Positions 8,264 to 61,596 of a stretch of DNA of 64,000 nucleotides are shown here, one piece after another. The DNA is from an uncultured Chloroflexia bacterium. Its GTDB lineage: Bacteria > Chloroflexota > Limnocylindria > Limnocylindrales > CSP1-4. A program made the translations under genes and the position numbers. The stretch spans positions 220,387-284,386 of the forward strand of contig CAVRGP010000006.1 of NCBI GenBank assembly GCA_963720755.1. The letters run 5' to 3'. Within the stretch, counting starts at the first letter, position 1. Every line of letters begins with the position of its first letter. The notes under the pieces were generated by a model. The model saw only the letters and a list, made by a program, of their open reading frames with translations, did no database searches and had not been told where the DNA came from.

Positions 8264-9358
8264 TCAGATGGGCTGCGCCACACCTTGCTGGATCGTGTCG
8301 CTGGATACCGTCCCGGTTGGATGCGGACCGCGGTCTACGGCGGGGAACTCCGTGCCTGGCTCTGCGCCCAGGAGAAGGTCCCGTTCGATCTGGAGCCGAA
8401 TCCGATACAGGATCTCCCACTCGTCAGTCGACACAGGCAGGTCGAGGAGCATGCGGTCGATCGCATCGAAGTCGTCTCGCAGGCGCACCCTGTCGCCTGG
8501 AACGACATCCACGTGACGGGTGGCGAGCGCGTCGATCAGGTCTTCGACGGCCTGAGCCTCGGCGCTCGTCGTCAGGTGTGCGGCCGTCGTGGTCAGTCGG
8601 CTCAGGATCGCCGATCGGGACCGCGACCGCGTCGTCGCGGTCCCTGAGATGGCGACATCGGATGGATAGATCCCGATCCGCAATTCCTCGCCCACGAGTT
8701 CGACTAGTCGGTCCGCCCGAAGCTTCCGGATCCCGGGACCGGCGACACGCGTCAGGACCCACGCAGGAACGGAGAGAACTCGTGGGGCGGGCTCTGCGCG
8801 CACTGGGATCGACGCGGTCACCAGTGCCTGCTCGAGGTCGGAGACGATCGCGTCGTAGCCATCGGGCTTGACCACGATCGGGATGTGGACATCGCCCCAG
8901 CGATGTCGGGCGCTCCGTACCTTGCGTGAGATCCCCACGGCTGGGAGGAACAGCATGAGGCCACCGAGGATGGGCGTCAGCAGGTAGCCTCGCAGCGCTT
9001 CGCGCACCAGCGCCAACCCGGTGGGTCGATCGTCACCCGACGGGACGAGTGCGGCGCACAGGCCCACCGCCGCGGGCACGATGGCGATGCCGCCCAGGAC
9101 CACCGCATGGATCAGGGACTCGGTGACCGATGGCGGGTGTGGTAGCAGGCCGAGACCGATCGACACCAGCGGCCGGACGATGGCGACAACGATCAGCGCC
9201 ACCCAGAGGAGGGCCCCGGCAAGCATCGATACGACGAAGACTTGATGTGAACGCTGTACGCGCCCGAACAGGAGCGAACTAGCCCATCCGAGAGTCGTGG
9301 TCAGGATGGCGGCGGCGAACCGGATGACCATGCCCACGATGGTCAAGAGGATCGTCAT
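8264..9358 (-). CDS. Hypothetical membrane protein
   Basis: 364-aa ORF with 4 N-terminal TM segments and a soluble C-terminus. Confidence 0.7.
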   Translation of the reverse strand: MTILLTIVGMVIRFAAAILTTTLGWASSLLFGRVQRSHQVFVVSMLAGALLWVALIVVAIVRPLVSIGLGLLPHPPSVTESLIHAVVLGGIAIVPAAVGLCAALVPSGDDRPTGLALVREALRGYLLTPILGGLMLFLPAVGISRKVRSARHRWGDVHIPIVVKPDGYDAIVSDLEQALVTASIPVRAEPAPRVLSVPAWVLTRVAGPGIRKLRADRLVELVGEELRIGIYPSDVAISGTATTRSRSRSAILSRLTTTAAHLTTSAEAQAVEDLIDALATRHVDVVPGDRVRLRDDFDAIDRMLLDLPVSTDEWEILYRIRLQIERDLLLGAEPGTEFPAVDRGPHPTGTVSSDTIQQGVAQPI

Positions 9359-53475: not shown

Positions 53476-53662
53476 GCCGGCCGGGTCAGGCAAGGGGTCG
53501 CAGCTAACCGGGAGGTGAGTGGCCAGCGCCAGGATGGCGCGCATGCCACCTCCCGACTCGACCCTCGATCTGGCTTTCGCGCGGCCCATCCGGACGCCTG
53601 TCGCGGTCGGGCCGGGTCGTCCAGTCGTCGGAACGTTCAGGCAGGGGGCGCCAGGCGACGGG

Positions 53663-56600
53663 ATGAGCGGCTATCCGATCCAACCCACGAAGGTCCAGTC
53701 TCCGCCGCTGCGGGACCAGACCCTCGCCCGCGATCGTCTGCTTGACTGGCTGGCCGCGCGGATCCACGACCGGGTGATCCTCCTGTTGGCGGATGCGGGC
53801 TACGGCAAGACGACTCTGCTCGCCGATTTCTCGCGACGGACCCGCGTCAGAACGCTGTGGTATCGGCTCGATGAGGACGACCGGGACTGGGTCCCGTTCC
53901 TGAGCCACATCGTGGCAGCCGGTCGCGAGCACGACCCCGGGTTCGCCCCGCGGACGACAGCCCTGCTGGGCGACATGGCGCTCGGCGGCCCGACCCGCGA
54001 GGCGGCCACGGACGTGCTCATCCGAGAACTGCCGACCATCTCGGAGCAGGGCGCTGCACTCATCCTCGACGACTTCCACCTTGTCGATGGGTCGGCGGAT
54101 GTCCGGTTCATCGTCAAGGAGCTCATCGCGAGGGCGCCGGAGCGGCTATCGATCATCTTCGCGAGCCGGCGCGCACCGACGATCCCGCTCGCGCAGATGC
54201 GCTCAGCTGGGGAACTTTCGGAACTCCGAACGGACGACCTCCGCTTCGATGTCGCCGAAACCAAGCGCCTGTTCACGGAGACATACGGGCGCGATCTGGA
54301 TGCCGACGTCATCGCTGACGTGGCCGCTCGGACCGAGGGCTGGGCCGCGTCACTCCAACTTGTCCAGGCGGCATTGCGAGATCGGTCACCGGCAGAGACC
54401 CGGCGGTTCGTCCGGAGTCTGTCCGGGGCGGACCAGGAGCTCTACGACTACCTCGCCGAGGAGGTGGTCGGCGATCTTGAGACGGACCTGCAGGACTTCC
54501 TCATGCGGACGTCCATCCTCCAGTTCGTCACCGCAGACCTGGCCGCCGTGGCCGCAGACATCGCACCACCGGAGGTCACCCGGCTCACCGTGGCGGCGGA
54601 GCGGTTGACGCTTCTGAGCCGGCCTCCCCGTTCATCACGCGGTCCGCAGCGATACCACCCACTCGTGCGCCAGTTCCTGGAGGCCCGTCTGCGAACGACC
54701 ATCGGAGATACGGCCATCGCCAACCTGCACCGGCGCGTCGCGGACGCCGCCTCCGAGCATGACTGGCGGACCGCAGCCCACCACTATCGGGAGGCCGGTG
54801 AGTACCACTCGTTGTCGAACACGATCGCCGGCGCGATCCCCGAGATCATGGGAAGTGGCCAGCACGCGATCGCCGCCGATGCCATCGACCGCGTGCCACA
54901 CGAGTCACGCCTGCCGATCCTGGGACTCGTCACTTCGCGGGTCCAGATGCAACGCCGCGACTACGACCCGGCGATCAAGGAGGCGCACGCAATTCTTGAG
55001 ATGGTCCAGCCTGGGTCTCAGGAGAGCGACTACGCACTCCTCAATCTCGTGACCTTCTACCTTCAGGCTGGCCTCGGTCGGCACTCCCTCCCGCTTGCAG
55101 AGCGGCTGCGCCAGACCACGTCGAGTGAGCACTTGAGACTGATAGCAGAGGGCACCGGCTTGATGATCGATGCAACCTTCGAGGGGAGCATTGACGCCAT
55201 GTCGACCCACCTCAAAACGATGGCGCGTCACCAGCAAGACGTCCACCCTCATTACTACGGCGTCACCATGCTCAACCTCGCGCTCACTTCCATGATCCAG
55301 GACGACCCTCAATCGGCCGTCGACGCCGCCGATGCGGCAATCGACGCCCTAGAAAACACCTCGTCGAGCATGGAGTTGTCGGCGGCATTCATGGCGCGCG
55401 GCTATGCGCTGACGCTTCTCGGGCAGCACGACCAAAGTCGACATGCAATCGCACGAGCCGCCGAGTTCGACGAGGTTGAAGCTGCATATGAGAGAGCTGA
55501 CCTTGCGGACAGCTTCATCGAGCCTGAGGCCGCTGCGCCGATGCTGCAAGCACTCGACGCAAGTTCCGATGCGTATGCTCGCCCCTACCACGTGATCCAA
55601 TCGGCCTGGTTCCTGGCTCGCCGCAATAGGTTCAAGGAAGCGCAGTTGGTGCTGGAGCAATCACAGCAAGGGGATGGCGTGCTCATGGGACACGCAACCG
55701 TCCGGCGAGTCACGGCGGCGTACGTGGCGGTGGCTTCAGAATCCAGCGCCGCGCCACGCCTCATCGAGGAAGCTTGGAAGGTTTCAAGAGACCAGGGCGC
55801 GACGCGATGGAGACGCGCCGCAGAACTTCTCAGAGCGGTCTCGGGGTCCACGAGCGACCTCAACTCGACGATCCGGAATGTGGGGTCCGTCTCTCCCTGG
55901 ACTCTGACCCTGCTCGCAGACCTTGTGTCTCGCCGGCTGGACGACATCGACATGCTTGCGATCTCGGCCGTGCAGAGTGCCGCCGCGTTGCATCCTGGCC
56001 GCTGGAGATTTGTCCTCCGACGTCGCGTTTCCGAAACCTCTGCAGAGGGAAGTCTTGCGGCCGCTCGCCTGCTCGAGACGATTGGTCAGAAGCAAGATGT
56101 GCAGCTCCTCCGATCGTTCGCCAGACTTCATCGTAGGCAACCGGGCGTCTCCAATCTGGGTCGGACGCTTGCGCGCCGGCTTGCGGACCCAGTCGTTGTG
56201 GAAGATCAGGGTCGCGTCGCGATGGTTGTGGGTGAGCGGAATATCTCGGGCTCGACCATCCGACGGAAAGTGCTGGCTTTGCTTTGCTTTCTGCTAACGA
56301 GACCCGGACTCTCAAGTACACGAGACCAGGTGCTCGACGCTCTGTGGCCAGACCTTGACCCACCAGACGCCGTCAACTCGCTAAATCAGACTGTGTACTT
56401 CTTGCGACGAGTGATCGAGGAGCGGTATGTCGATGACCTCTCGCCCGGCTACTTGCACCACGACTCGGACCTGATATGGCTTGACCCAGAACTCATCTCG
56501 AGTCGCAGTAACGAATGCAGGATGTTGATACAGGCGTTGCCTGTGGAACCTACGCCTGACCAGGTTGCGACCCTGGTCGAGACGTATCACGGTCGCTTCG

Positions 56601-56908
56601 CCCTCGACTTCGAGTACGAAGAGTGGGCCGCCCCGTACAGAGACTGGCTGCACGCGTCGTATCTCGAGATTGTCGAACGGGCGGTAACACGCGATCTCGA
56701 AACCGGCCACTTTGACCGCGGCATCAAGCTTGCCAGACGCGCGATGGACATCGATCCCGACGCCGACAACATCGAGGTGTCGTTGATCCGCTTGTACCAC
56801 GCCAGCAGCGCACACAACGCGGCAGCCGAGCAGTACGCGCACTACGCCAACTCGGTCCGCGACCAGCTCGGAATCGAACCACCTACCCTCAATTCGTTGT
56901 GGGGATAG
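53663..56908 (+). CDS. Large STAND (MalT-like) ATPase/TPR regulator with C-terminal wHTH and BTAD domains
   Basis: ADAGYGKTT, LILDDFH, TEGWAA, RYHPL; C-terminal ALLCFLL...RDQVLDALWP...NSLNQTVYFLRR and BTAD-like helices ending LGIEP. Confidence 0.85.
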   Translation: MSGYPIQPTKVQSPPLRDQTLARDRLLDWLAARIHDRVILLLADAGYGKTTLLADFSRRTRVRTLWYRLDEDDRDWVPFLSHIVAAGREHDPGFAPRTTALLGDMALGGPTREAATDVLIRELPTISEQGAALILDDFHLVDGSADVRFIVKELIARAPERLSIIFASRRAPTIPLAQMRSAGELSELRTDDLRFDVAETKRLFTETYGRDLDADVIADVAARTEGWAASLQLVQAALRDRSPAETRRFVRSLSGADQELYDYLAEEVVGDLETDLQDFLMRTSILQFVTADLAAVAADIAPPEVTRLTVAAERLTLLSRPPRSSRGPQRYHPLVRQFLEARLRTTIGDTAIANLHRRVADAASEHDWRTAAHHYREAGEYHSLSNTIAGAIPEIMGSGQHAIAADAIDRVPHESRLPILGLVTSRVQMQRRDYDPAIKEAHAILEMVQPGSQESDYALLNLVTFYLQAGLGRHSLPLAERLRQTTSSEHLRLIAEGTGLMIDATFEGSIDAMSTHLKTMARHQQDVHPHYYGVTMLNLALTSMIQDDPQSAVDAADAAIDALENTSSSMELSAAFMARGYALTLLGQHDQSRHAIARAAEFDEVEAAYERADLADSFIEPEAAAPMLQALDASSDAYARPYHVIQSAWFLARRNRFKEAQLVLEQSQQGDGVLMGHATVRRVTAAYVAVASESSAAPRLIEEAWKVSRDQGATRWRRAAELLRAVSGSTSDLNSTIRNVGSVSPWTLTLLADLVSRRLDDIDMLAISAVQSAAALHPGRWRFVLRRRVSETSAEGSLAAARLLETIGQKQDVQLLRSFARLHRRQPGVSNLGRTLARRLADPVVVEDQGRVAMVVGERNISGSTIRRKVLALLCFLLTRPGLSSTRDQVLDALWPDLDPPDAVNSLNQTVYFLRRVIEERYVDDLSPGYLHHDSDLIWLDPELISSRSNECRMLIQALPVEPTPDQVATLVETYHGRFALDFEYEEWAAPYRDWLHASYLEIVERAVTRDLETGHFDRGIKLARRAMDIDPDADNIEVSLIRLYHASSAHNAAAEQYAHYANSVRDQLGIEPPTLNSLWG

Positions 56909-56921
56909 GTAAGGTTGCGTA

Positions 56922-56951
56922 TTGACCGGTTCACTCGCCGGTCCATATAGT
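56922..56951 (+). promoter_or_regulatory. Putative promoter of the riboswitch/peptide/HD-GYP operon
   Basis: TTGACC (56922-56927), 18 nt, TATAGT (56946-56951). Confidence 0.65.
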
Positions 56952-56996
56952 CCCGGGACTTCGTAGTACTCCAGTACTAGGAAGCCAAGTCAATAC

Positions 56997-57068
56997 GCTC
57001 GGACGCGCTGAAGCACCACCTGAAATGGGCACTTGGGGTGGAGCAGAGCGAGTAGTGCAACCGACCGA
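56997..57068 (+). ncRNA. c-di-GMP-II riboswitch
   Basis: TCGGA...TGAAG...GGGCACTTG...GAGC.AGTAGTGCAACCGAC; GCAC/GTGC pseudoknot pair; P1 TCGG/CCGA. Confidence 0.82.
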
Positions 57069-57090
57069 CCACAAGTCAGGTCGGTTTTTG
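57059..57090 (+). terminator. Riboswitch expression-platform terminator
   Basis: AACCGACC-GAC-CACAA-GTC-A-GGTCGGTT-TTT; overlaps the aptamer 3' strand. Confidence 0.78.
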
Positions 57091-57129
57091 TGTTCCTTGG
57101 AACACGAAGGCCGCGAAGGAGGATCGAGC

Positions 57130-57173: not shown

Positions 57174-57263
57174 ATGAAGGCCAAGATTTCGCGAATCATG
57201 GTGGCGCTAATAAGTGTCGCTTTGGTCGCGGTGGCTGGCGGAGCGTCATTACGAGGCTTCTAG
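57174..57263 (+). CDS. 29-aa putative signalling-peptide precursor
   Basis: MKAKISRIMVALISVALVAVAGGASLRGF: basic N-region, hydrophobic core, GGA, short polar/aromatic tail; GAGGG upstream. Confidence 0.75.
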   Translation: MKAKISRIMVALISVALVAVAGGASLRGF

Positions 57264-57337: not shown

Positions 57338-58738
57338 ATGCCGCAATCGCTAAAAGCCTACGTCACGGGAGTCGTGACCCTGAGTGCTCTCGCACTCGTG
57401 GTTGCGACTCTTGTGTTTCCCGCTGGTCCGGGGATCGCGCTTGGCGCCAGCGGACCCGTACCAACCATTTCCGAAATCTGGCTAGGCGTCGCGTTCTGGA
57501 TCGTTCTCACGCTCATTGCATCCGCGTTGCCGGTCAAACTGCCGATGGGCACGCACCAGGCTGTTGCCATGGCACCCCTCATCGCCGCGATGTCGTTGGG
57601 CGGACCGGCCGTCGCTGGATGGGTTGCAGCGCTAGGTTCCACCGAAGCTCGCGAGCTTCGAGGTCGCATCCCTTGGTATGGGTCGCTGGTCAATCATGCC
57701 GGGGCGACACTGCCAGCAATTCTCGGCGGTGTGGTAAGTAGCGTGATCCTGCGGGTCGCCGGACAATCTGGGCGGCAGGACCTTGGGATCGACCTGATCG
57801 CCACACTTGCGGGGTCGGCAGTCCTGCTCGGCTTGAACACTGCTATCGCCGCGGGCGTGCTCGCGTTGAGAACCGAGCAGCCCTTCGCAACCGTGCTCGG
57901 AGGCGACTACCGAGCCACAGCGTTCAACAATCTCGCGCTAGTCCCACTGGGTTGGCTCATGGCGCTCGTGTACTCGACCCTCTGGTGGGCAACACTCCTC
58001 TTCGCCGTACCGCTGTATACGACTCGGATGGCGTCGGTGCGGTTCGTGGAGATGCGCGACATGTTCACGCAGACGATCGGGGCCCTGGCGGCTGCTGTGG
58101 ACAAGCGAGATCCATTCACGGCGGAGCACAGCCGGAACGTGAAGACGATCTCGGTCGATATCGGGCGGGTCATGCGGCTCAGTGACGCGGAGCTGGAAGC
58201 CCTCGAGTGGGGGGGCCTGCTCCACGATATCGGGAAGATCGGCATTCCGGACAACGTCCTCAAGAAGCCTGAGCGCCTGACCCGAGAGGAACGGATGATG
58301 ATGAATGCGCACCCGGTCAAGGGTGCCGAGATCATCGAGCCGGTCGCCAAGTTGGCCGCGGAACTGCCGATCATCCGACACCACCATGAGTGGTACAACG
58401 GCTCGGGCTACCCGGACCGTTTGATCGGCGACGAGATCCCGAAACTGGCCCGCATCCTGCACGTGGCCGACGCCTTCGAGGCGATGACCGCAGCTCGACC
58501 CTATCGCATGACCCCGTTGACCCCGGAGATCGCACTCGCGGAATTGCGCAAGTTCGCCGGCGTGCAGTTCGACCCGGTCGTGGTCGATGCATTCGTCCGG
58601 ACGCGTCACGCCGATGGGGTGGCGGACGCCGGACGCACGCCCGAGCCTCGACAGATCCCGCTGATCGCCCAGGCTGCGGAGCGCATGGCGATGCCCAGCT
58701 CCGGGCCTGCCCCAGGCTCGCCGACCGATCTCGGCTGA
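57338..58738 (+). CDS. Membrane-sensor HD-GYP cyclic-dinucleotide phosphodiesterase
   Basis: About 7 N-terminal TM segments; DPFT..HS, LLHDIGK, HHEWYNGSGYP, VADAFEAMT..RPY, QFDP. Confidence 0.92.
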   Translation: MPQSLKAYVTGVVTLSALALVVATLVFPAGPGIALGASGPVPTISEIWLGVAFWIVLTLIASALPVKLPMGTHQAVAMAPLIAAMSLGGPAVAGWVAALGSTEARELRGRIPWYGSLVNHAGATLPAILGGVVSSVILRVAGQSGRQDLGIDLIATLAGSAVLLGLNTAIAAGVLALRTEQPFATVLGGDYRATAFNNLALVPLGWLMALVYSTLWWATLLFAVPLYTTRMASVRFVEMRDMFTQTIGALAAAVDKRDPFTAEHSRNVKTISVDIGRVMRLSDAELEALEWGGLLHDIGKIGIPDNVLKKPERLTREERMMMNAHPVKGAEIIEPVAKLAAELPIIRHHHEWYNGSGYPDRLIGDEIPKLARILHVADAFEAMTAARPYRMTPLTPEIALAELRKFAGVQFDPVVVDAFVRTRHADGVADAGRTPEPRQIPLIAQAAERMAMPSSGPAPGSPTDLG

Positions 58739-58819: not shown

Positions 58820-60847
58820 ATGCTGATCGGCGGCATCGCGCTCGGGCTGATCCTCGGCCTGCTCGTCGGCGGCAGCATCACGAACCTCGCCTACATCCAC
58901 CTGCGCCGTCTCCGGTTGCTGCTGGTCGCGGTGGCACTCCGGTTGGCGACCGACTACCTGCTCAACGCAGGCTTCCCGATCGTCGAGCAGCTCCGAGTGC
59001 CGCTACTCGCAGCGGCGTACGCCCTGCTCCTGGTCGCGCTATGGGCGAACCGCGGGTACCCGGGCATGAGCCTCGCCTTCATCGGCGTCCTGTCGAATGC
59101 CGTGGTCATCGTGATCAACGGCGGCTACATGCCGATCTACCTGCCCAGCCTGGAACTGGCCGGACTGACCCAGGCTGACATCACGTCGGCCCTCCATTCG
59201 TTCCTTCCCGCAGCCCTCGATGCGAACTTCCTGCTCCACCTTGGCCCGTTCTCGGACGTCATCCCGATCCCCTTCCCGATCGTCCAGAACGTGGCTTCGG
59301 TCGGGGACGCGTTCCTGACCCTCGGCCTGGCGTTCTTCCTGTTCGCGGGTGTCGTTCGGATCCCGCATGAACTCGACGAGGAGCAACTCGCCGCGATCAA
59401 ACGGCGGCTCGCCAACGCGTCTCACTCGCGTCGACCGCGGCGCGCCGGCGATCCGGGCGCCGAAACGGGCCTGTCGCCGGCCTTCGCGGGTGCCGTTGCC
59501 CTGGAACGCCCGCTCATGCTCGGCAGTGCGGGGGCCGGCCTTGCGTCGCCGTCCATGACGTCGTTCGAGAGCGACGCCGCCGCCGTCTTCCCGGAGCCGT
59601 CGGACACGCTCGTCCGGGTCCGCCAGCACCCATACGTTCGGCTCGCCCTCAACGGATCGTTCTCGGCGCTGTGGGCCGGTCAGCTCATCTCGCTGTTCGG
59701 CGATCGACTGAACCAGCTCGCGCTCGTCGCGGTCGTCCTCATCTCGACCGGGTCGACCCTTGCCAGCGGGTTGGTGTTCTTTGCGGCCACGCTCCCGAAC
59801 CTGCTCCTGAGCCCGATCGCCGGGACATTCGTGGACCGATGGGATCGCAAGGAGGTGATGATCGTCAGCGACGTCCTGCGGGCGGCGCTCGTGCTCATCC
59901 TGCCGATCGTCGCCGTATGGAACCTGCTGCTGGTCTACCCGCTCGTCTTCCTGGTCACCAGCATCTCCGTGTTCTTTCGGCCCGCTCGGGTGGCCATCCT
60001 GCCGCGGGTCGTGCCCGAGGAGGACCTGCTCAGCGCGAACTCCGCGCTGTGGGTCGGCGAGACCATCGCCGATATCGTGGGGTACCCCCTGGCCGCAGCG
60101 TTCGTGGCCGTCCTCGGTTCCTCCGTGCCGCTTGCGTTCTGGGTCGATGCAGCGACGTATCTGGCCTCAGCAGCCCTGATCAGCACGATCGTCCTGCACG
60201 CAGCGCCCGCGAGCGACGTCGAGACCGGTACGGGTGCGGGGTTCCTCGCGGAGATGGCTGCCGGCTGGCAGTTCCTGCGGCACGAAACCGTGCTGCTCGC
60301 GAACACACTCCAAGGTGTGGCCGGCCAGTTCAGCCTCGGGATCACGATCGCCCTGACGCCGGCCTTCGTCGAGGTCGCCTTCGCCGACTCCGGATATCGA
60401 TGGCAGGCGGTCTACGGATTCCTCGAGGCGGGGATCGGGCTCGGAAACCTCGTCGGTGGATTCATCATCGGACTCCTCGGCACGCGCTTCGCGAAGGGTC
60501 GGATGGTGATCATCGGGTACACCGCCTGGGGCCTCTCCATCTTCCTGTTCGCCTTGTCGGGCAATGTGGCGGTCGCCCTCGGACTCGCGTTCGGCCAGGG
60601 TGTCGCGAACATGATCTTCATCATCCCGAGCCAGACCCTGTTCCAGGAGCGCACGCCGGCCGCGCTGATGGGTCGCGTCGTCGGGTTCCGGTTCGCGCTC
60701 GTGTTCGGTTCGATGACCTTCGCGATGGCGATCGGCGCCATCTTCGGGCAGATCGTCGGAGCGGCGCCGGTCATGGCGGTCTTCGGGCTGGTGACCGTCG
60801 CGGCTGGGCTCGCCGGGATGCTCGTCCCGGCGGTTCGTGATGCCTGA
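58820..60847 (+). CDS. DUF5317-like membrane domain fused to an MFS transporter
   Basis: N-terminal SNAVVIVINGGYMP...DVIP...SVGD; linker; then F.ALW.GQLIS.FGD, AGTFVDRWDRK and MGRV of a 12-TM MFS. Confidence 0.82.
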   Translation: MLIGGIALGLILGLLVGGSITNLAYIHLRRLRLLLVAVALRLATDYLLNAGFPIVEQLRVPLLAAAYALLLVALWANRGYPGMSLAFIGVLSNAVVIVINGGYMPIYLPSLELAGLTQADITSALHSFLPAALDANFLLHLGPFSDVIPIPFPIVQNVASVGDAFLTLGLAFFLFAGVVRIPHELDEEQLAAIKRRLANASHSRRPRRAGDPGAETGLSPAFAGAVALERPLMLGSAGAGLASPSMTSFESDAAAVFPEPSDTLVRVRQHPYVRLALNGSFSALWAGQLISLFGDRLNQLALVAVVLISTGSTLASGLVFFAATLPNLLLSPIAGTFVDRWDRKEVMIVSDVLRAALVLILPIVAVWNLLLVYPLVFLVTSISVFFRPARVAILPRVVPEEDLLSANSALWVGETIADIVGYPLAAAFVAVLGSSVPLAFWVDAATYLASAALISTIVLHAAPASDVETGTGAGFLAEMAAGWQFLRHETVLLANTLQGVAGQFSLGITIALTPAFVEVAFADSGYRWQAVYGFLEAGIGLGNLVGGFIIGLLGTRFAKGRMVIIGYTAWGLSIFLFALSGNVAVALGLAFGQGVANMIFIIPSQTLFQERTPAALMGRVVGFRFALVFGSMTFAMAIGAIFGQIVGAAPVMAVFGLVTVAAGLAGMLVPAVRDA

Positions 60848-60943: not shown

Positions 60944-61596
60944 ATGAGCGAACGACCCGAAGGCACGCCGGAGGAGGCGCCCGCCGACCCCGCCGAGCCC
61001 ACGGAGGCACCGCCGGTCGAGCCCGAACCCGAGGTGACCGCGGCGCCGGAGGCCTGAGCCGGAACCCGAGCCTGAGCCGGAGCCCGAGCCTGAGGTGGAG
61101 CCCGAGCCGGAACCGGAGCCTGAGCCGGAACCAGAATCCGAGCCGGACATCGAGCCGATGGTCGAACCCGAGTCGGCGGCGGTTGCGGCGGCGGCCACGA
61201 CGAAGGGGAAGCGGGGATCGGCTGGCCCGACGGCCCGACCACTGACACCGGGCGAACGGGCCGCCAAGATGACCGAGAACCCGTCGCGGATCTTCGTCAT
61301 CGCCAGCGTCGCGATCTTCGTGGTCATCATGCTGTACGGGCTGCTCGGCGGCCACCACGGTCTGCTCACGACCAAGCCGACACCCGCACCCACGCCCATC
61401 GCGAGCGAGCCGGCCGTCAGCGCATCGCCGTCGGCCTCGGCGGGTGCCAGCGAGTCACCGGCGGCTTCCTCGTCCGCGACCCCGTCCGCGGCCGTCCGCA
61501 TCGGCGGCTCCGTCCGAGTCCGCGGCGCCTTCAGCGTCGCCGGAAGCCAGTCCGTCTGCCGCCCCGTCGGCTGAGGCCTCGCCCAGCCCGTCCTGA
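60944..61596 (+). CDS. Low-complexity single-TM protein (EP repeats, Ser/Ala/Pro tail) with two apparent frameshifts
   Basis: GGAG RBS; MSERPEG... shifts frame near 61050 and 61495. Confidence 0.55.

Follow-up and report, generated by a model that had tools for sequence, protein, structure and literature searches.

What does the DUF5317 domain do at the head of a membrane transporter, and does the small peptide encoded nearby have a part in it? The question is raised by a 64,000-nucleotide stretch of DNA from an uncultured Chloroflexia bacterium (contig CAVRGP010000006.1), the whole of which is referred to here as the window. In this window, the open reading frame (ORF) at 58820-60847 on the forward strand encodes a 675-residue protein with an N-terminal DUF5317 domain and a C-terminal MFS transporter of the DHA3 type. 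A preliminary description of the sequence had likened the domain to signal peptidase II (LspA) and had proposed that it could be a Cys-independent aspartic peptidase dedicated to the adjacent peptide. The comparison of loci and the structure predictions described here suggest that DUF5317 probably binds this micro-peptide. The parts of the protein are as follows.

Positions 58820..59370, forward strand: DUF5317 domain, residues 1-184 (PF17248, E 1.9e-24), with five helices and a beta-rich extracytoplasmic insert.
Positions 59255..59257, forward strand: codon of D146, the first invariant Asp, which lies in the predicted peptide interface.
Positions 59306..59308, forward strand: codon of D163, the second invariant Asp, in the motif S-x-G-D at the start of the last helix and again in the predicted peptide interface.
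Positions 59654..60847, forward strand: MFS transporter domain (DHA3 or MFS_3 type), with a linker of about 95 residues between it and DUF5317.

The PF17248 model matches residues 26-174 with 86.8 bits (cut-off 25) over profile positions 2-150 of 151, and all 28 aligned relatives are matched as well. The domain was found in 92 of the 301 genomes sampled from the phylum, one of which (G266) is unpublished; the control genomes of the survey, Thermus thermophilus and Thermotoga maritima, gave matches to the model too. It is seen alone, in the fusions DUF5317-MFS_3 and MFS-DUF5317, and behind a phosphodiesterase domain (HD_5-DUF5317, P0244). The source genome has one copy.

The family has a small and strictly kept set of residues. 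In an alignment of 70 domains (28 taken from protein databases, the other 42 from genomes of the phylum), whose members span more than 20 families of the phylum, N77, G89, N93, M104, D146, G162, D163 and G169 never vary. S160, G102 and P105 occur in 69 domains each and N100 in 65, while position 41 holds Q, R, K or H throughout. The two stretches quoted in the preliminary description are indeed present in the translation of window positions 58820-59389, as residues 89-105 and 144-169, and the two Asp residues to which it had drawn attention are conserved without exception.

The AlphaFold2 model of the domain is a confident one (predicted local distance difference test, pLDDT, 92.3; predicted template modelling score, pTM, 0.84). 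It has helices at residues 2-15, 31-50, 59-76, 83-99 and 161-179 and a beta-rich insert at 103-160; residues 83-190, modelled separately, reached a pLDDT of 81.9. In three fold searches, none of the solved folds stood out as a clear match. Judged by the positive-inside pattern, the insert lies outside, as do both Asp residues. A relative at another locus (L088, 5881-7929, minus strand) is informative in this respect, as it has the reversed fusion, with MFS first and DUF5317 last, and its DUF5317 part begins at profile position 29 and lacks helix 1. Since the termini of MFS proteins are cytoplasmic, a DUF5317 core that follows the transporter without helix 1 must have both its N- and C-terminus inside and the Asp pair outside. 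The core is thus made of four helices with both ends in the cytoplasm, to which the window protein adds an extra N-terminal helix. D146 then falls within the last outer loop, and D163 where the last helix begins on the outer side.

The DUF5317-MFS gene is the last of an operon, which runs from a riboswitch of class II for cyclic di-guanosine monophosphate (c-di-GMP) through a 29-residue peptide and a membrane HD-GYP phosphodiesterase. The two genes that precede it are given below.

Positions 57174..57263, forward strand: gene of the 29-residue micro-peptide, translation MKAKISRIMVALISVALVAVAGGASLRGF.
Positions 57338..58738, forward strand: membrane-anchored HD-GYP phosphodiesterase of 466 residues, with an N-terminal multi-pass membrane domain and a C-terminal HD_5 domain.

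The micro-peptide has a basic N-terminus, one hydrophobic helix, an AGGAS box and a tail of four residues, and GAGGG stands seven bases 5' of its ORF. It has no Cys; its lipobox-like box of small residues reads A-G-G-A-S, which agrees with the Cys-independence that had been suggested. Six micro-peptides compared with Pfam and NCBIfam matched no family. The sample of loci, all drawn from one phylum, comprised 36, of which 16 were orthologous to that of the window and 20 had a stand-alone DUF5317 (5-kb flanks). The 16 orthologous loci belong to two families of the class. In all of them DUF5317-MFS directly follows the HD-GYP gene on the same strand, and in 13 of them tblastn finds the micro-peptide upstream of the HD-GYP gene. 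The exceptions are L075 and L086, which have no peptide, and L088, with only a doubtful match elsewhere. When nine of the peptides were aligned, A-G-G-A-S and one later Gly were invariant, and the helix varied in sequence while staying hydrophobic.

The pairing is also seen away from the transporter. Beside the stand-alone DUF5317, a same-strand peptide of like build (a basic N-terminus, a single helix, a box of small residues with G-A at its core, and a tail 4-10 residues long) was judged by eye to be present in 16 of the 20 further loci, namely L090-L093, L095-L103, L106, L107 and L109. A uniform ORF rule was also applied, which asked for a hydrophobic window of at least 2.0, a tail of 3-14 residues and a basic residue before the helix. 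By this rule, ORFs were found in 25 of the 36 loci on the strand of DUF5317 against 5 of 36 on the opposite strand, and the background, taken from 42 such ORFs in the 3.01-Mb source genome, amounts to 0.053 expected per locus. Some of the 25 positive loci are probably chance ORFs. The source genome has one such peptide, beside its one DUF5317 and its one match to the riboswitch family RF01786.

The surroundings of the stand-alone domains repeat the other elements of the operon. HD-GYP genes adjoin 12 of the 20, in 11 cases on the same strand, and MFS genes adjoin two (L100 and L103). In L091, a riboswitch (c-di-GMP-II-GAG), two peptide genes, HD-GYP and DUF5317 follow one another in this order. 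Riboswitches of the type c-di-GMP-I-GGC lie just downstream of the stand-alone DUF5317, one in L106 (4475-4784) and two in L109 (4237-4857); behind each of them come one or two small ORFs for hydrophobic peptides, whose C-terminal part consists of a Gly-Ala-Gly box and an Arg-Trp tail. A membrane GGDEF-EAL protein of 901 residues is encoded upstream in L109. Some further arrangements were observed. In another family of the phylum, L103 (5569-8127, minus strand) and L100 (3020-4943, plus strand) carry, in this order, the peptide, HD-GYP, MFS and a stand-alone DUF5317; the HD-GYP and MFS parts of L103 share one open frame of 852 codons and may be a fusion. In L105, a cyclic di-AMP (ydaO) riboswitch (8593-8729, minus strand) lies about 3 kb from the stand-alone DUF5317 on the opposite strand and is probably unrelated to it.

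A direct contact between the two partners is predicted with confidence. For the complex, residues 1-190 of DUF5317 (28-row alignment) were combined with the peptide as a 32-residue natural translation (9-row alignment). The interface score ipSAE came to 0.79, 0.82 and 0.80, against 0.00, 0.01 and 0.00 for three controls. In the calibration of the tool, 58 of 80 solved complexes reach the mark, as do 2 of 110 mismatched pairs; these counts serve only as a rough guide here because own alignments were used. Across the runs, the pLDDT of the partners was at least 81, at least 97% of the contacts were common to the runs, and 101-104 confident contacts extended along the whole peptide helix.

On the DUF5317 side, the interface comprises residues 41, 89-90, 93-94, 104, 146, 155-160 and 162-163; on the peptide side, it comprises residues 17-31 of the 32-residue chain, whose helix runs antiparallel to the last DUF5317 helix. 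The first Gly of AGGAS touches N93 (expected error 1.2 Å), residue 90 and residue 166, and position 41 touches the Ala before this Gly. D146, residues 155-160, G162 and D163 meet the box and the tail. In the model, therefore, residues that are invariant in the DUF5317 family surround those that are invariant in the peptide, and they do so in the outer leaflet. Such a model supports binding without proving it. With the conserved neighbour peptide and a complex at 0.80 against 0.01 for the best control, the dedication to the adjacent peptide is a part of the preliminary proposal that finds support.

The relation to LspA itself is less simple. The catalytic Asp residues of LspA are those of its motifs VVDF and FNxAD. 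These motifs had been given correctly in the preliminary description, for in 34 LspA sequences of the phylum, the residues G122, N123, D126, R127, G131, V133, D135, F136, F149, N150, A152, D153, I156 and G159 (numbered as in the source genome's own LspA) are conserved at 85-100%. The similar spacing of the Asp residues is also borne out, at 17 residues in DUF5317 (D146-D163) and 18 in the own LspA (D135-D153). When the profile of the 70 DUF5317 sequences was compared with that of the 34 LspA sequences by hhalign, residues 140-189 of DUF5317 were placed on 129-179 of LspA with a score of 28.5, a P of 9.2e-4 and a probability of 22.7%. D146 is paired with the Asp of VVDF, S160 with the Asn of FN and G162 with the small residue, while the second Asp of LspA is the partner of D163, and the Gly six positions after it that of G169. 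The shared local motif is thus S160-x-G162-D163-x5-G169 on N-x-A-D-x5-G of LspA.

The score is higher than that of any of 100 column shuffles (mean 11.8, maximum 21.8; 0/100 reach it) and of reversed controls (13.0 and 15.5). It also exceeds the scores of DUF5317 against five other membrane-family profiles constructed in the same manner (A24, 14.3; rhomboid, 18.0; CPBP, 17.9; MFS, 13.0; the HD-GYP membrane domain, 12.2). Among the alignment variants, the probability ranged over 16-26% and the in-register match was stable in three of four; it persists without the row from the unpublished genome and with genome-derived rows only. With the 28 database rows alone, a different match comes top, in which helix 1 of DUF5317 is laid on helix 3 of LspA (27.6). 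It was rejected as spurious, as the paired helices are oppositely directed and helix 1 is missing in L088. A pairing of G142 with G131 of LspA was also set aside, since position 142 is Gly in only 31 of 70 domains. The likeness between the two families is, on these profile comparisons, borderline with respect to chance.

Other searches gave no sign of LspA. PF01252, the Pfam model of peptidase family A8, has no match in the window protein at E <= 0.1 and matches 0 of 28 relatives at E <= 10. BLASTP of the domain against the own LspA found no match (the best E was 0.099 over 25 residues in the wrong region), and the family profile searched against PDB sequences gave no LspA and four chance matches (E >= 0.15). 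The LspA fold has four helices with a beta-cradle and a periplasmic helix. No clear similarity of fold, for which a Foldseek search of a predicted structure had been suggested, emerged: Foldseek against the PDB gave no match at E <= 1 and no LspA among the best 50 of 131 matches, none of the three fold searches of the DUF5317 models had LspA among the matches listed, and a search of the ESM Atlas returned no usable match. The LspA motifs DQxxK, NxGxAF and GNxxDR have no counterpart among the conserved DUF5317 columns. When the LspA profile was run against 635 membrane ORFs of the source genome, DUF5317-MFS ranked 4th through helix 1 (residues 7-34), not through the Asp region.

The genome has a canonical LspA on contig 11, which is its only Pfam A8 (PF01252) match, and LspA is present in 60 of 61 genomes of the phylum, a count that includes one unpublished genome (G078). 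On the minus strand of contig C14, a 123-residue ORF (C14_-_8855_123) corresponds to LspA positions 100-171 with an hhalign probability of 92.7%, perhaps as a fragment or as a paralogue. The proposed resemblance therefore survives in part. The short motif, the geometry and the register of the Asp residues stand, and hhalign does align both Asp pairs in context; the other LspA motifs and the A8 model (0/28) do not speak for it, the fold searches gave no clear match, and the alignment probability is 21-26%. The likeness of DUF5317 to LspA is limited to one short motif and a general geometry, and membership of A8 is not supported. By analogy, the domain may nevertheless act like LspA.

The regulatory features of the operon are listed here.

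Positions 56922..56951, forward strand: promoter-like site (TTGACC, 18 nucleotides, TATAGT), a consensus match only, at 10 of 12 positions; one was found against 0.2 expected in shuffles.
Positions 56992..57075, forward strand: c-di-GMP-II riboswitch aptamer (RF01786), cmscan 65.6 bits against a gathering threshold of 53.5, E 2.4e-14, over the full model 1-84.
Positions 57063..57096, forward strand: terminator-like hairpin and T run, with an 8-pair stem at 57063-57086 followed by TTTGTGTT.

The aptamer is the only RF01786 match of the source genome, and the family lies upstream of all six orthologous operons scanned. The literature searched yielded no paper on a c-di-GMP-II riboswitch in Chloroflexi and, judged by title or abstract, none of relevance on the c-di-GMP-I-GGC type. 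The region 57050-57110 folds with -24.6 kcal/mol (z -3.4), and the 5' arm of the terminator-like hairpin overlaps the 3' strand of the aptamer, that is, its closing stem. Because of this overlap, ligand binding should block termination, which would make it an ON switch. Judged from the sequence, the riboswitch probably turns the operon on at high c-di-GMP.

In the upstream phosphodiesterase, HD_5 (PF13487) matches residues 251-415 with 134 bits (cut-off 27.2, E 5.7e-39), and its translated sequence shows the HD and GYP residues. In the MFS half of the last protein (residues ~280-660), PF07690 (E 2.4e-17, 63.4 bits) and PF05977 (E 3.3e-17, 62.6 bits) are both above their cut-offs, while TIGR00900 gives E 3e-58 but stays under its own cut-off. 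On either side of the operon, other sequences were observed on the same strand. A 1129-residue regulator (53519-56908) ends 84 bases before the riboswitch and has an AAA/STAND-like NTPase, TPR, a winged-helix part (Trans_reg_C, below cut-off) and BTAD. Downstream, at 60944-61596, there are ORFs with Pro-Glu and Ser-Ala-Pro repeats, one with a hydrophobic segment, and long runs of Ser-Gly occur on the opposite strand. The sequence is of low complexity and may be coding or non-coding.

The following mechanism can be proposed as the likeliest. DUF5317 would be a dedicated membrane partner of the micro-peptide, with its four-helix core clasping the single helix of the peptide. The AGGAS junction would then sit in the outer leaflet against N93, D146, S160, G162-D163 and the always-polar position 41. 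The Asp pair would cut at or next to the small-residue box, and a C-terminal peptide of 4-10 residues would be freed outside, in a manner comparable to the cut of LspA at the lipobox but without a lipid-modified Cys. The MFS part might export or clear the product, and the HD-GYP enzyme might feed back on c-di-GMP. We infer every one of these functional steps, namely catalysis, the cleavage site and the roles of MFS and HD-GYP. That DUF5317 is an Asp-pair endopeptidase of this kind, cleaving the micro-peptide, has in our estimate slightly less than an even chance.

Several features are consistent with such a cut. The invariant cluster of Asp, Asn and Ser suggests an active site, as far as conservation can tell, and the geometry of the modelled complex suggests a substrate of the signal-peptide type. 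Both Asp residues are kept in lineages whose peptide tails lack basic residues (L100 and L103), so a mere salt bridge to the tail is unlikely. The aspartic peptidase of the preliminary description appears plausible and unproven: an invariant outer Asp pair is found in the predicted peptide interface, but the searches found neither a protease signature nor a protease fold.

Some observations tell against the proposed cleavage and its likeness to LspA. The complex prediction cannot separate a substrate from a stable subunit, its three controls are of uncertain peptide hydrophobicity, and its read-out consists of contacts, without an Asp-Asp distance. The probability of the LspA alignment is only 21-26%. 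When single sequences were ranked against the DUF5317 profile, the own LspA came 27th of 635 membrane ORFs. The match of 27.6, which is topologically impossible, implies that chance can produce scores near 28 between these two families. At their ends the peptide tails carry basic and aromatic residues, as is typical of interface anchors; all of the tails are short, and no larger cargo was seen on any peptide of the loci examined. The proposed scheme also leaves the role of the MFS part unexplained.

Part of this evidence would suit a partner that is never cut. The micro-peptide, induced by c-di-GMP, could remain intact as a regulatory subunit that binds DUF5317 and tunes the fused MFS, the HD-GYP enzyme or both, as AcrZ does with AcrB or MgrB with PhoQ; the polar cluster would then merely hold the Gly-rich kink of the peptide. 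We regard this, the main rival, as somewhat unlikely. It would account for the extensive helix-helix packing, with its 101-104 confident contacts over the whole peptide helix, and for short tails that end in Arg or Lys and Trp or Phe in the manner of interface anchors. The searches of DUF5317 found no protease signature or fold, and a precedent exists in the riboswitch-controlled small membrane proteins of C. difficile (PMC13724677). Yet the invariance of eight residues, two Asp and two Asn included, in all 70 domains from more than 20 families of the phylum is more like an active site than a docking surface, and the Asp residues do not change although the peptide tails differ widely between lineages.

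The peptide might also be beside the point. DUF5317 could serve the transporter as an accessory module and have some other target, such as an ion or a lipid or envelope precursor; regulation alone would then explain why the small ORFs are its neighbours. The MFS fusions in both orders would suit a transport accessory, any function of the family is so far putative, and four of the 20 stand-alone loci show no peptide. It is an improbable account, given that the pairing with a peptide was found in 25 of 36 loci where 0.053 was expected per locus, and that the confident predicted complex is centred on the invariant residues. Still less probable, in our view, is a very distant but true homologue of LspA, in which the last outer loop and last helix would be a catalytic hairpin retained from LspA while the rest diverged and the insert moved. 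For such an origin speak the in-register alignment (P ~1e-3), which is stable in three of four variants and scores above shuffles, reversals and five families, the four-helix N-in/C-in cores of both proteins, in each of which the last helix begins with the second Asp, and the lipobox-like box of the substrate-like peptide. It is countered by the 21-26% probability, the 0/28 A8 matches and the equal-scoring spurious match, by the lack of a counterpart to DQxxK, NxGxAF and GNxxDR, by G142 (Gly in 31/70) and by the 27th rank of LspA among 635.

The proposal of a cleaving partner can be taken further. DUF5317 may represent a new family of aspartic membrane peptidases that matures riboswitch-controlled micro-peptides into extracellular signals of 4-10 residues, with the fused or neighbouring MFS aiding their release or clearance and the membrane domain of the neighbouring HD-GYP (or GGDEF-EAL) protein sensing them. 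This would amount to a peptide signalling loop wired into c-di-GMP turnover in many bacteria of the phylum. The extended scheme, taken as a whole, is speculative and to our mind unlikely.

DUF5317 is a widespread domain with a confident predicted fold that has no clear solved match, and neither DUF5317 nor PF17248 is mentioned in the literature searched. It is now tied to an unannotated class of micro-peptides, to c-di-GMP riboswitches of both classes and to c-di-GMP-degrading enzymes. If cleavage is true, it would be a new membrane aspartic peptidase family that links second-messenger control to peptide processing. If there is binding only, the system would add a new case to the small proteins that are under riboswitch control and regulate a transporter. 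In either event, proteins without a known function, in their thousands, and short genes missed by annotation pipelines would become testable.

Several known systems resemble this one in some respects and differ from it in others. LspA (MEROPS A8, PF01252) is likewise a small polytopic protein with a four-helix N-in/C-in core and two invariant Asp residues 17-18 apart, one in the last outer loop and the other at the start of the last helix. A polar-x-small-Asp-x5-Gly motif is common to both, and the presumed substrate of DUF5317 has, again, an N-in helix that leads into a small-residue box. Unlike LspA, DUF5317 carries its large outer insert in the last loop and not in the first, it has no significant sequence or fold match to LspA and none of the other A8 motifs, and its neighbour peptide lacks Cys and so lipid modification, in a genome that keeps a canonical LspA. 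The GxGD proteases (prepilin peptidase A24 and signal peptide peptidase) also have two membrane Asp residues, the second in a small-x-Gly-Asp motif, and signal peptide peptidases cut N-in helices. In DUF5317, however, the motif is S-x-G-D and not G-x-G-D, and the first Asp is in a loop and not in a helix. Kinship with these proteases was rejected, as hhalign against a 30-sequence A24 (PF01478) profile of the phylum gave a score of 14.3 and a P of 0.23.

The C39 peptidase-ABC exporters of double-glycine peptides have their processing domain fused to the exporter. A putative processing domain on a putative exporter and a Gly-Gly box are found in the DUF5317 system as well, whereas the folds, the class of transporter (MFS) and the build of the peptide (a membrane helix and not a soluble leader) are different. 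In the AgrB/AgrD system, a membrane peptidase of ~190 residues matures a neighbour peptide of ~30-45 residues, a membrane sensor is encoded in the operon, and AgrB uses Cys and His. DUF5317 similarly stands beside a small peptide and a membrane sensor-type protein in one operon, a likeness of gene content only; it differs in having Asp, an HD-GYP protein in place of a histidine kinase, and control by a c-di-GMP riboswitch.

Finally, in C. difficile, small membrane-associated proteins follow c-di-GMP riboswitches, sometimes in multiple copies (PMC13724677). These proteins have 58 residues, are under class I riboswitches and are repressed by c-di-GMP, and the authors state that there are no homologues outside C. 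difficile (PMC13724677). No DUF5317 partner is named in the text of that paper. The tandem units of riboswitch and peptide are a feature that L106 and L109 share with the C. difficile system.

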